Source: Candidatus Poribacteria bacterium
GTDB lineage: Bacteria > Poribacteria > WGA-4E > PCPOR2b
Reading direction: 5' to 3'
Assembly: GCA_965218095.1 (NCBI GenBank)
Contig: OZ244587.1
Location: forward strand, 448,001-512,000
DNA: 64,000 nucleotides
The position numbers were made by a program, and so were the translations under genes. Shown here piece by piece: positions 19,271-23,290 of this stretch (positions are counted from its first letter, which is position 1; each line of letters opens with the position of its first letter). The notes below the pieces were generated by a model, which ran no database searches, had not been told where the DNA came from, and saw nothing but the letters and a program-made list of their open reading frames with translations.

Positions 19271-20500
19271 TTATTTCGCCCTAACTAACGCGTGCGCCAC
19301 CTTGTTAATCGCCCTGGCAATGTCCCGGATGTCGTCCTCGCTCATGTGTTCGTGGATGCCACGGACGACGACTGTTCTCAAGCCTTCGACTGCGCCGGGG
19401 ACGCCCTCGGGACCATAGTGGTATTCGCGGCTGACGTACGCGCTGTTAAACGGGAATTTGCTGCTGCCGTAGGTATTTCCCTCTGTCAGGAATTTACCCC
19501 GCATATAGATTGGGTCTTCAATGTAGTGAGCGCTCATTGAGACGCCTTCGACGGAGACAGCTTTACAGAATTGATCGGGGTCGTGACCGGTGACATGAAA
19601 GATGTAGTTCCACCAAGAAACTTCGCGGTCATCAGGCATTGGAACGACCTCGATTCCGGGCGCGTCAGCAATCAACTCGGTGAGCAATTTTCCAAGATCA
19701 ATACGGCGCTTGACCACCCACCGAAGTTTTTCCAACTGCGCCAAACCGACAGCCCCCTGCATCTCCGTCATGCGGTAATTGGGAGCGAGGAAGGCGTGAT
19801 CTCGTTCTCCCATGTATTGATAGTCCCAGCCTTTGTCCGAAAAGAGTTTCAGACGGATATAGGTTTCTTCGTCATTGGTCAGAATCATACCGCCATCGCC
19901 GGTAGTCATGTGCTTCGATTGCTGGAAGCTGAAGCAACCGATATGACCAAACGTTCCGGCGTAGCGTCCCTTATATTTCGTCGCGTGGGTCTGGCAGCAG
20001 TCCTCGATCAGGATGAGGTTGTATTTTTCGGCGATCTCCAGGGCTTCATTGATGTCACAAGGATGACCAAAAAGATGGACCAGGATAATTGCCCTGGTGC
20101 GGTCTGTGATGTTGGCCTCAATTGATTCCGGGGTCATGTTCAGCGTCTTCGGATCAACATCGGCAAAGACCGGCACAGCGTTCTGCATGAGGATAGGCAT
20201 GACGCTGCCGGGGTCAGTAATCGGTGCGGTGATGATCTCATCGCCGGGGTTCGGATTGACTGCACCAACCGCTGTGTGGATGGCGGCGGTGCCGCTAGTC
20301 GATGCCTGTGCGTAGTTTGCGCCGAAAAACTCAGCGAATTTCTTTTCCAGTTCTTTGACGAATGTCCCACTTTTGCCGAAAAGGTTTTGGCTGCGCACCG
20401 CCTGAAGCAGAAGTTCCTCTTCACGTTTGCCAAATGGGGCGCGTTCCGGAAAGGGTTCGGTTCGTACTTTTGGTCCGCCGTGGATGGCGAGTTTTTCCAT
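19271..20500 (-). CDS. DegT/DnrJ/EryC1/StrS PLP-dependent aminotransferase
   Basis: KLAIHGG, SGTAA, PGDEII, IEDCCQ, FSFQQSKHMTTGDGG, NYRMTE; RBS AAGGAG before MEKL. Confidence 0.93.
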   Translation of the reverse strand: MEKLAIHGGPKVRTEPFPERAPFGKREEELLLQAVRSQNLFGKSGTFVKELEKKFAEFFGANYAQASTSGTAAIHTAVGAVNPNPGDEIITAPITDPGSVMPILMQNAVPVFADVDPKTLNMTPESIEANITDRTRAIILVHLFGHPCDINEALEIAEKYNLILIEDCCQTHATKYKGRYAGTFGHIGCFSFQQSKHMTTGDGGMILTNDEETYIRLKLFSDKGWDYQYMGERDHAFLAPNYRMTEMQGAVGLAQLEKLRWVVKRRIDLGKLLTELIADAPGIEVVPMPDDREVSWWNYIFHVTGHDPDQFCKAVSVEGVSMSAHYIEDPIYMRGKFLTEGNTYGSSKFPFNSAYVSREYHYGPEGVPGAVEGLRTVVVRGIHEHMSEDDIRDIARAINKVAHALVRAK

Positions 20501-20511
20501 TTTTGTCTCCT

Positions 20512-20781
20512 TCAACTAACTGTTATTAAACCCAGTCTACGACCGACTTCTTCATTTTCCACTTCAATCCCCGCCTTGTTTTCCATATAGTATTCCAACG
20601 CTTCTTCTACTGTCTCAATGGGTAAGTCAAAGCCTTCAGCCGTTTCCTAGATAGTAAATTGGTTCGCTCGCATCGTTGCAACGAGATTCCAAGCCGGCAT
20701 GTTTCGATCTTTCACACCGAGAAATTTGGTCTTTTTATAGGGCTTTGGTTCAAGATAGCGATAGTGATTCTCTTGACTCAT
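20512..20781 (-). pseudogene. DUF433-like small HTH/antitoxin-type gene (3' exon of the intron) with an in-frame TAG
   Basis: MSQENHYRYLEPKPYKKTKFLGVKDRNMPAWNLVATMRANQFTI*ETAEGFDLPIETVEEALEYYMENK..; TAG at 20647-20649. Confidence 0.65.
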
Positions 20782-20784
20782 TTC

Positions 20785-21559
20785 GTATGGATAGGTAGAA
20801 CCCTTGCGGGTTTTCCCCCCATCTAAACCGTGCGTGTGACTTTCACCGCACACGGCTTGCTCTGTCAATTACTGATTATCCAAAATAAGTGGTTAGAAAA
20901 CCTTTAGGCTGTCTGGGTTTATTTCTAACGAAATTGGATAATCTCAGCCATACTTATTCTGTATCATTTAGAACATTGAGGACGAGTTGCCAAGTATGTT
21001 TTCACAGTGACTTGATTTTGCGCTCATTTTCCTTTAATCTATTTATGTTCCTTTAATCTATTTATGATACATTTCTGTATGTTGACACTAGGCAGGCTTG
21101 GCATAAATGCCTATCTGCCTTCCTCTCCCATATTTCTTTATAGAAACTTAGGGACTTTCCTGTTCTCACATAATGCACGTTATGAACGATTTAGGCTCTG
21201 ACTGTACCCCGAAGCTGTATAGCTTACTAGTAGTATGATAAAATAACATACCATCTTTGATTTTGCAATGTTTAAGCATTATCACTTAGCTCGTACTTTT
21301 TAGTTATAGGCTGTTTATTGCAGATGCACCTATTCAAAGGTGACGAGGCTTCAATCATCAGTTCAACTTTTGCTTTAGCCATTTCGTTCTTAGCCTGACG
21401 TATCAGTTTATGGGGTCTGCATTCCCCACAGGATATGCGCCTTTTCCCTTTGCTTTCCACATTGTCTTTTCAAACAATGCAGTTAAGGTAAGGCTTGTGG
21501 ATGTAAGCTACCACTGATGGATTTTCACCATCATTACATTATGCTACACAGAAACGCAC
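20785..21559 (-). mobile_element. ORF-less group II intron (IIB, class-B-like), 775 nt
   Basis: 5' end GTGCG at 21559. 34-nt DV AAGCCGTGTGCGGTGAAAGTCACACGCACGGTTT (20825-20858) with AGC triad and GAAA loop. DVI GGGGGGAAAACCCGCAAGGGTTCTACCTATCC with bulged A at -8; 3' end ..ATAC. EBS1-like ATTTTA (21239-21244) pairs with the 5' exon TGAAAT. AT-rich, no RT ORF. Confidence 0.92.
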
Positions 21560-21562
21560 ATT

Positions 21563-23290
21563 TCACTCCTTTCTATTTTCACCGAAACGCTCCAGCATTT
21601 CCTTTGCCTCATGCCCTTCCTCTGAGTTGGGATATTTTTCTGCAAGGTTTCGCAAAAGTTCCAACACGCCGCTCTGCTTGAGTTCCTGCGCCAACTCCAA
21701 CTGATAGTGGGCTATGCGCAGCATCGCTGACGGGGCTCTCGGCCCCTCCGGTGCAACCACTAAGATCTGGTTCACCTGATCCAATGCCTTATCAAACTCC
21801 CCTTTGGCTTTGTAACATTCAGCGAGACGTTCACGGGCTTCGAGTGTGGTGAGGAGATCATTGTAATCTTCGATGAGTTGCGTATTGACGCTGATCGCCT
21901 CATCTCAATTCTCCATCCATTGTGCAATTGCAGCCAAACCACGCAGTGAGGGTAATGCGGCGGCAGGGCTAACAGCTTTATCTGCGGCTTGACGAAACAT
22001 CTTCGCAAGTTCGGGGAGCTTGCCCCTCACCTCCAACTCGGCGATCACGTCTTCTTCATGCGAGGCTTCGATGAAACGGCAGATAGCTTGACGACGCAGA
22101 TAAGGATTCGGGTTAGCAAGGAGAGAACTCAAAAAATCAATTGCTTTCTCGCGTTGATTCGTCCGCCAGTACATCTCTAGGAGTTGCATCATGGCTTCAT
22201 GGGCATGCTCGGTTTGCGGAGAGGATTCGACAAGGTCTTTGAGGATAGACTCCGCGCGATCGTAATCGAAGTTTTCAGCATAAACTTCGGCGAGATTTCT
22301 TAACACTACCACATTGAATCTGTCGGGATATCCCTGGGAAAGTCGGGTAAGGAGTTCGATCGCTGGATCCGATTTCCCAAATTGTTGGTAAAGTTGGGCC
22401 GCCCGACGGAGCGCCCATTGCGCCTGGTCAGTTCCACGAAACTCGACGGCAGTGAGAAACGCTTTGAGGGCAGCCTGCAAATCGCCTTTCTCCTGGTGCA
22501 TACCACCCATTATTGACCACACATGAACGATACTCCAATGTGCGGGAAAGGTTTCAATCGCTGCATTGCACGCCTTGATTGCTTGATCTAGCTCTCCCAT
22601 CTCCCAATAGGTTTCAGCAAGTTGGACGAAGGCTTCAACACGGTCTGGATGGTTCTTCTGGATTTTCTGAAATAGCTCGATTGCCTGTTGATGCCCTCCA
22701 CGTTCCCGGTAGTGTTCGCCTAGCCGCAACGTCAGCCAGAACGTGTTTTCTTGAAAGGGATACTGCTGGATCATCTGATCAATCCGTCGACGCGCATCTT
22801 CAAGCCAACCGTGTTCCAAATCTGACTCAATAATGACCTCCATCGCCTCAAATACCTGATAATCGCCGATGAATTTTGTTGTAATCTCATCAACGAGTTT
22901 GCGTGCATTATCCAGATCTTCTTTCTCAACCGCATGGCAAAGCTGCCACATCAAGATTTCAGCCTTCTCTCGCGGGTGGGAAATCGCAGCTTCCGCTTCC
23001 GCTAAAATCGACTGTGCTTTCTCAGGTTGTCCGAGCGCGGCATAGCACTCGCTCAGTTTCATGCGTGCCCACTTCGCTTCCCAACGCCATGGGTCATAGG
23101 CAAGTAGGCGTTTGCACTCCTTGATGACGACTTGATACTGTCTCTGGTGGAACAGTTTCTCGATTTCTTCGATGGGTCTAGCAACGAAATCATCTGGGAC
23201 TTCCTCTTCGTCAACAGGATTCTCAATTTGTGCCCCTAAAATCGGTATCACTGCAAACAAGAAAATCAAGCAAATCAGTGGTATTTTCAT
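21563..23290 (-). pseudogene. Exported TPR-repeat protein interrupted by one in-frame TGA
   Basis: Signal peptide and many TPR helices. After the TGA at 21905-21907 (probably TGG) the same frame continues DEAISVNTQLIEDY..KGEFDKALDQV into ORF 21563-21784. Confidence 0.85.

Follow-up and report, generated by a model that had tools for sequence, protein, structure and literature searches.

The window analysed here, a stretch of 64,000 nt from the genome of a Candidatus Poribacteria bacterium (GenBank contig OZ244587.1, positions 448,001 to 512,000), carries a group II intron between a Shine-Dalgarno (SD) sequence and the start codon of a small gene. The position of this intron is likely explained by the target recognition of its family, in which exon-binding site 2 (EBS2) of the intron pairs with an SD-like sequence of the 5' exon. 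This explanation is carried by the boundaries of the intron, by exon pairings that covary, by a repeated geometry of SD sequence, splice site and start codon, and by empty sites. Insertion would have been driven by these pairings, through retrohoming or retrotransposition, in line with the pairing-driven reverse splicing established for group II introns (PMC12584367). We also lean, if only slightly, towards a wider proposal: that a lineage of introns in sponge-associated Poribacteria-like bacteria has turned EBS2 into a copy of the anti-SD sequence, homes to ribosome-binding sites (RBSs) generally, and sits between the SD sequence and the start codon of many unrelated genes. The copy in the window is one immobile member of the family without an open reading frame (ORF), and the arrangement at this locus has the look of a relic in decay and not of a regulatory switch.

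Exon recognition by the intron family

All features of the locus are on the minus strand, and their coordinates are positions in the window (Table 1). The intron starts 3 nt past the stop codon of a tetratricopeptide repeat (TPR) gene and ends 3 nt ahead of the ATG of the small gene. Ligation of the exons gives AGGAG-N9-ATG. In the unspliced RNA, the pyrimidine-rich end of domain VI supplies the 17 nt ahead of the ATG, and no SD sequence is among them. The sequence-only reading had described the same placement, with a usable RBS formed by splicing and none in the precursor, and all of its coordinates proved correct. The intron is assigned to group II by its domain V/VI match with the AGC triad, the bulged A of domain VI and the GUGYG/AY ends. 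In domain VI the bulged A is retained and compensatory changes are found. Domains I–III fit in about 440 nt, and no open frame of at least 80 aa is present in the 775 nt.

EBS2 was located by aligning the copies of the family together with 20 nt of exon, and lies in a loop at about intron nt 215–231. In this family, EBS1 pairs with exon positions -6 to -1 and EBS2 with -13 to -9, where the two exon partners are intron-binding sites 1 and 2 (IBS1 and IBS2). The EBS2–IBS2 pairing covaries across about 35 related copies. SD-like pairs are CCUUU/AAAGG in the copy of this locus (B), in F and in L055, CCUUA/UAAGG in C and I, CUUCC/GGAAG in S, CCUCC/GGAGG in T, UCUCC/GGAGA in L071, UCUUC/GAAGA in L058, and UCCUU/AAGGA in L082. 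Pairs that are not SD-like covary as well (AUUUUA/UAAAAU in M, GGAUAG/CUAUCC in Q, UACGC/GCGUA in L063 and CUCCAG/CUGGAG in L084), and a change between the genomes G017 and G023 is matched on both sides (UUGGG/CCCAA in L059 versus UUAGG/CCUAA in L065).

In most branches of the family EBS2 is a run of pyrimidines, such as CCUUU, CCUUA, CCUCC, CUCCU, CUUCC or UCUCC. The 16S rRNA of the same genome has the 3' end GGATCACCTCCTTTCT, so the frequent variants of EBS2 reproduce stretches of the anti-SD tail letter by letter and have SD sequences as targets. Because the EBS2 loop repeats part of this tail, the preferred IBS2 is an SD sequence. In a tree of intron nt 1–215, from which the exons and the EBS loops were left out, SD-type copies are on deep branches, and the other specificities are seen as isolated departures and, in one case, as a clade with conserved sites of its own.

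EBS1 is then constrained to match the A/U-rich spacer of every gene, and such a match is seen. A 6-nt complement of exon -6 to -1 with at most one G.U pair is present in 24 of 32 copies and in five of six further copies; the copy in the window has five Watson-Crick pairs and one G.U. Two adjacent hairpins, HP1 and HP2, have loops of 9 nt each, and either may hold this complement. EBS1 is in HP2 in B, F, S, T, L079 and L082, and in HP1 in C, D, I, N, O, L071, L080 and L081. Copies K (3601485-3602927) and O (4514987-4516393) of the same genome have identical hairpin regions at two different sites: the exon of O pairs with the HP1 loop and that of K with the HP2 loop. Copies N and Q have a single hairpin only. 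The use of either loop as EBS1 could let one intron serve two sites and could speed target switching.

The splice site is 8 nt downstream of IBS2, close to the usual spacing of SD sequence and start codon, and the intron therefore lands in the spacer or on the start codon itself. In the precursor RNA, the SD sequence is far from the ATG and is also held by EBS2. Since splicing rejoins the SD sequence and the start codon, translation of a gene behind such an intron needs splicing. This dependence is built in by construction and does not count as evidence of regulation.

Fifteen distinct sites with an SD-like IBS2 were found (seven in the same genome, eight in relatives). The sequence-only reading had proposed to check whether sister introns also target SD–ATG spacers, and this check came out positive. 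At nine of the 15, in at least six genomes, the splice site is at most 3 nt from a start codon (Table 1; the names of genes behind the introns are readings of N-terminal motifs, not database matches). L079, L080, L081 and L083 have intact reverse transcriptase (RT) frames of 583–598 aa and intact genes behind them. Among the six copies of the same genome that have no SD-like IBS2 and have both ends known, none shows the start geometry. L076 (G022:C5:2205114 onward) has two IS3-type transposase-like frames in place of the RT, and the gene behind it is intact. The gene behind copy F has an in-frame TAG at codon 18, followed by about 330 open codons; it is the second intron-preceded gene of the genome with a nonsense codon.

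For the background, positions with an SD-like 5-mer at -13 to -9 were compared with the first or second start of frames of at least 60 codons, and 6.7% of such genome positions lie at such a start. A first criterion, any start opening at least 70 codons, was too lax (7.4% at random positions) and was replaced. The probability of at least nine of 15 is about 9e-8 (binomial), and that of at least seven of 15 is about 2e-5 when B and F, whose ORFs are broken, are left out, but these values overstate the case because the copies are related, membership in the SD-like group was judged by eye and a single genome supplied the background.

For three of the genes behind these introns, the genome of the window has orthologues with no intron, with 82–86% amino acid identity, and they keep the native SD sequence and spacer; in the orthologue of the L075 gene the 13 nt before the splice site are identical. 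Therefore, the SD sequence is native to the gene and is not brought by the intron. The matches for L076 and L080 in this genome are 43% identical paralogues and were not used as empty sites, and no orthologue of the L083 gene was found there.

Table 1. Features of the locus in the window and insertion sites within 3 nt of a start codon (a slash marks the splice site; coordinates of copy F are those of the whole genome)
Feature	Position	Strand	Description
TPR-repeat gene	21563-23290	-	575 codons + stop; TPR families, E down to 2e-30
IBS2 AAAGG	21568-21572	-	exon -13 to -9; 5' part of SD AAAGGAG; complementary to EBS2 loop
IBS1 TGAAAT	21560-21565	-	exon -6 to -1; includes TPR stop TGA; pairs with AUUUUA
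ORF-less group II intron	20785-21559	-	775 nt; 5' GTGCG (21559) ... 3' CCATAC (20785)
EBS2 CCUUU	21336-21340	-	intron nt 220-224, terminal loop of domain I; identical to part of 16S 3' tail ..CACCUCCUUUCU
HP1 loop, 9 nt	21267-21275	-	first hairpin; not complementary to exon of this copy; EBS1 in other copies
HP2 loop, 9 nt	21238-21246	-	second hairpin; EBS1 AUUUUA at 21244-21239
19-nt tandem duplication	21026-21063	-	in domain IV; one copy missing in contigs of runs X4, X10 and X11
Domains V + VI	20785-20860	-	Rfam RF00029, 54.3 bits (gathering score 40)
Small gene	20512-20781	-	89 codons; ATG 20781-20779; GAA (20784-20782) precedes ATG
DegT/DnrJ/EryC1-type aminotransferase gene	19271-20500	-	intact; E 1e-90; 87-90% identity to relatives
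Site B (this locus)			same genome; /gaaATG; small gene
Site F	1598536-1600607	+	same genome; exactly between AAAGGAG-N6 and ATG; Gfo/Idh/MocA-like gene
Site T			same genome; A/TG; 73-codon frame
Site L075/L079			relatives; /aagATG
Site L076			relative; /tATG, between TAAGGAG and ATG; short-chain dehydrogenase
Site L077			relative; ATG/; oligoendopeptidase-F-like gene, about 600 codons
Site L080			relative; /gaATG
Site L081			relative; /ttATG; P-loop protein
Site L083			relative; /ATG; protein with signal peptide

The locus, other strains and copies of the intron

The TPR gene ends with ..AGA AAG GAG TGA (stop codon at 21565-21563) and is followed by AAT at 21562-21560. Its last codons contain the SD sequence AAAGGAG (21572-21566; AGGAG is 21570-21566). 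With the intron excluded, the TPR stop codon and the ATG of the small gene are separated by a spacer of only 6 nt. Both flanking genes are interrupted, as the sequence-only reading had noted. The TPR gene has an in-frame TGA at 21907-21905 (codon 462), where eight of eight relatives have tryptophan, and its orthologues in relatives are intact (46–69% identity). In the small gene, codon 45 is a TAG in frame (20649-20647), against lysine or glutamate in its three best homologues; these, from three other genera, are 65–69% identical and intact open frames of 142–163 aa (L032-L034).

An alternative genetic code behind the in-frame TAG and TGA was rejected, as all three stop codons are in normal use: 4415 open frames of at least 200 aa in this genome end with TGA (1763), TAG (1170) or TAA (1482). 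An assembly error was also rejected. The public sequencing run X4, from another study, has the same letters, and the nonsense codons in the small gene and the TPR gene are therefore real.

The homologues of the small gene carry an additional conserved N-terminal part of about 55 aa, and the start of the copy here corresponds to about residue 57 of them. Within 1.5 kb of the homologues in the three other genera, neither a TPR nor a DegT gene was found; synteny of the small gene there was considered and rejected, because the best homologues sit elsewhere in those genomes. In six loci of other genera, the TPR and DegT genes are adjacent without the small gene, with gaps of about 60–330 nt. The sequence-only reading had called the small gene DUF433-like. 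This label is weak: the match to DUF433 (PF04255) is below the Pfam cut-off (13.5 versus 23.6 bits, E = 0.065).

Contigs of four public runs were aligned to positions 20300-22100 of the window. A contig of run X7 joins 20783 to 21559, so that exactly 775 nt are absent (20784/5 to 21558/9, with one ambiguous base). The depth at this joint is 20.8, equal to that of the flanks, and the joint read on the minus strand is the predicted sequence of the ligated exons. X7 is probably DNA, because its contigs reach 69.8 kb and its depth is even over intergenic DNA. The joint is thus most likely an intron-less allele in a strain that is about 99% identical, with the junction that the sequence-only reading had predicted for such alleles. 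The contigs of run X4 pass from each exon into the intron (20300-20815 and 21531-22100). The site is therefore polymorphic, with the intron in X4 and without it in X7.

The TAG of the small gene is kept in the intron-bearing X4, where all three differences in that contig fall elsewhere. It is probably also present in X7, although one of the three X7 differences is unlisted. Codon 462 of the TPR gene is TGG in the intron-less X7 and TGA in the intron-bearing X4, so the nonsense allele and the intron co-occur in the two strains seen.

Metatranscriptome contigs of two further runs (X10 and X11), 98–99% identical to this copy, cover the interior of the intron from 20829 to 21526, with depths of 16–31 and 3–6. 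The RNA runs with the intron carry the label sponge metagenome, and their contigs break in the repeated intron ends. The cover of the interior alone could fit a stable excised intron, or the same intron at another site in those strains.

In domain V, this copy has A at 20837, against G in the 16 others of the 17 aligned copies. The upper helix thereby gains a C.A mismatch that is unique to this copy.

The genome is a single contig of 6.35 Mb (G000:C1). A search with the 775-nt intron gave 32 matches, and a profile of the first 120 nt found 15 complete 5' ends. RF00029 matches number 23, 17 of them with the 3' motif of the family. Both ends are present in 13 copies, of which six are ORF-less (715–803 nt) and the remainder have decayed frames. 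The proteins encoded by the family have the domains RVT_N, RVT_1, GIIM and HNH. In this genome, the maturase domain (GIIM) is present in only one copy (598220-600671), and this gene is broken, with the RT domain split over two frames and containing a TGA. No intact maturase of the family was found in the genome. Intact RT frames of the family exist in relatives.

The relic view of the locus follows from the polymorphic site, the nonsense codons in both flanking genes, the mismatch in domain V and the lack of an intact maturase. The sequence-only reading had itself cautioned that its gate may be a relic, and this caution is adopted here for the locus. On the other side, both exon pairings and domain VI are intact.

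Among 24 other genomes from the taxonomic family of this bacterium, 12 gave members of the intron family; none of 16 genomes from other families of the order did. Proteins with 49–100% identity to an intact RT of the family are only from records titled Candidatus Poribacteria or 'uncultured bacterium', and the next-best proteins beyond the Poribacteria-titled records are 30–44% identical. The records of the closest relatives are titled Candidatus Poribacteria. A scan of metagenomes with a 16-nt intron motif gave 117 stretches, of which 80 loci were kept. None of the 80 fits the 5' profile of the family, and these loci are therefore regarded as chance matches.

Several side observations concern the other copies. 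Six more domain V matches in the genome (402693, 1767773, 3231221, 3716848, 5249721 and 5730142) have different 3' ends and thus represent further families of group II introns, for which this genome gave no maturase domain. Only 5' parts are present at 1927835 (-) and 4272802 (+), and only 3' parts at 1393839 (-), 1737320 (+), 4579245 (-) and 4935585 (-). Copies H and I have at least 45 nt of 5' flank in common, beside an insertion sequence (IS)-type transposase-like frame. The unpaired halves and the shared flank of H and I suggest rearrangement between intron copies, or copies borne by IS elements. A sequence of 14 nt in the 5' flank of copy Q (4704109-4703363, -) recurs across the 3' end of the copy; this 3' end deviates from the family motif, and the boundary is uncertain.

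Two sub-families have sites of their own. The copy at 4426125-4426839 (+), L057, L062 and L064 are inserted after a conserved ..CTACAAnCTnAAGTGCG. The last letters of this exon, GTGCG, are those with which a group II intron typically starts, and the insertion may thus be into another intron (twintron). In G017 and G023 (L059-L061, L065-L070), many near-identical copies follow a shared 15-nt site, ..AACCYAAGTTGCTAG, with different flanks upstream of it.

Weight of the evidence and of other explanations

Beside the overstated P values, several points weigh against the reading that pairing of EBS2 with SD-like sequences placed the intron. No start codon can be recognised at six of the 15 SD-like sites: the situation at A/L058, C and I/H is unclear, S is five codons before a stop codon, L082 is in codon 6 and L084 is upstream of an SD sequence. 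The tree was made with FastTree from 215 nt and is midpoint-rooted. The RNA contigs bridge no exon–exon or exon–intron joint, and the exon flanks are without cover. If run X7 were RNA, its joint would reflect the splicing of an mRNA instead of an empty site. The frameshifts in the sole maturase gene could in principle be assembly errors. Splicing and mobility of the family are predicted from sequence.

The first alternative is that the introns inserted widely and persisted mainly in SD–start spacers, which are non-coding yet transcribed. The SD-likeness of the 5' exon would then be a by-product of where the survivors sit. Bacterial group II introns are mostly found outside genes (PMC2882425, PMC4424553, PMC12584367), and some members of this family are in IS-like or non-coding DNA, as expected from such a filter. 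However, the specificity is in the intron itself, since the EBS2 loops are anti-SD-like, covary with the exon and keep the fixed register of -13 to -9. The spacer is also no harmless place for the downstream gene, because an unspliced intron there blocks this gene as surely as one inside it. We consider a filter of this kind unlikely, both as an account of the positions and as an account of the SD-like exons.

The second alternative is the regulatory gate of the sequence-only reading, in which the small gene, and perhaps also the aminotransferase, would be controlled at the level of translation by modulated splicing. In its favour, the small ORF is unlikely to be translated from unspliced RNA, and SD-N9-ATG is formed again by ligation. 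Intact genes of relatives follow introns of this kind and can be expressed only by way of splicing. RNA of the intron interior occurs in the two metatranscriptomes with the exon flanks uncovered, and a c-di-GMP-controlled group I ribozyme provides a precedent (PMC9481103). In contrast, no sensor was found: in the window, no other Rfam family reached the gathering score, and only weak matches at chance level were obtained (E up to 1). The gene to be gated has a nonsense codon in two or three strains. The site is also polymorphic, and X7 has the form without the intron at full depth. The copy has the domain V mismatch, and the only maturase gene of the genome is broken. The aminotransferase has its own SD sequence GAAGGAG (20513-20507), which overlaps the stop codon of the small gene, and its own ATG at 20500; its proposed dependence on splicing fails, as both are independent of the junction. 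The same geometry recurs before unrelated genes, which argues for targeting and not for regulation specific to this locus. The gate is therefore given very little credence.

Chance landing in a short intergenic spacer, with a purine-rich 5' exon that has no significance, would be compatible with this one site and its 6-nt spacer, but it is already disfavoured by the family comparison and is hardly credible, as nine sites have the geometry against a background of 6.7% and both EBS1 and EBS2 of this copy match their own exon.

Comparison with known introns and significance

The closest precedent is a proteobacterial clade of IIB1 introns located at start and stop codons (Michel et al. 2007, as cited in Gomes et al. 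2025, PMC12584367). Like this clade, the family described here has an endonuclease-bearing RT and sites at translation start signals, and its splicing must restore expression signals; nine of its sites are within 3 nt of a start codon. The clade is also defined by a 5'-subterminal insertion of 300–700 nt, subdomain Ia (PMC12584367). This insertion is absent here, since whole ORF-less copies are only 715–803 nt long and the 5' end aligns without an insertion. Other differences are the hosts, which are sponge-associated Poribacteria-like bacteria, and the genes, which are ordinary metabolic ones. The colonisation of start and stop codons by the IIB1 clade is described as 'currently unknown' (Gomes et al. 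2025, PMC12584367), whereas an explicit targeting mechanism, the EBS2–SD pairing, is proposed here.

The families of Thermosynechococcus elongatus (Mohr et al. 2010, PMC2882425) are similar in having many diverged copies, with ORF-less ones beside ORF-bearing ones. EBS/IBS divergence into sub-families, sites that include IS elements and other introns, and intron halves suggesting recombination between copies are also common to both (PMC2882425). That genome keeps active RTs (PMC2882425), whereas the genome of the window has only a broken one and no intact RT/maturase of the family. No SD-directed targeting is described for T. elongatus in the available portions of PMC2882425.

Introns of subgroup IIC insert after transcription terminators or into attC sites (PMC4424553, PMC7923331, PMC12584367). 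Like the present family, they are directed to a signal that is ubiquitous at gene boundaries and not to a single unique homing site. What IIC introns recognise is a DNA hairpin; they are without EBS2 and have an EBS1 of 3–4 bp. In contrast, the family here has a covarying EBS2 of 5–6 bp and an EBS1 of 6 bp, and it targets the starts of genes and not their ends.

Splicing of the c-di-GMP-II group I ribozyme reportedly brings a ribosome-binding site next to a start codon. This system combines a c-di-GMP-II riboswitch with the ribozyme (Lee et al. 2010, as described in PMC9481103). It is alike in that a self-splicing intron is located in a bacterial 5' leader and that its removal is needed for downstream translation. 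The difference is that it is a group I intron with an allosteric sensor, whereas no ligand-sensing aptamer at the Rfam gathering score was found in the window.

Three target specificities of group II introns, for homing sites, for terminators and for attC, are listed in a review of 2015 (PMC4424553). The available portions of PMC4424553, PMC8919778, PMC7923331 and PMC2882425 contain no account of SD-directed targeting. Full-text literature searches likewise turned up no description of SD- or RBS-directed group II targeting, which does not prove its absence from print.

By itself this locus is a modest result, an immobile relic in a decaying spot. The result at the level of the family, that an anti-SD-like EBS2 explains the sites between SD sequence and start codon, is more interesting. 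Spliceosomal introns presumably descend from group II introns, whose choice of sites decides how harmful they are. The aligned copies suggest a simple rule for this choice, in which EBS2 mimics the anti-SD tail and the spacing of EBS2 and EBS1 matches that of SD sequence and start codon. If true, this would be a fourth kind of target choice beside unique homing sites, terminators and attC. Translation initiation of host genes would then depend on splicing, and many symbiont genes, translatable only after splicing, would have a ready-made but unproven point of control.

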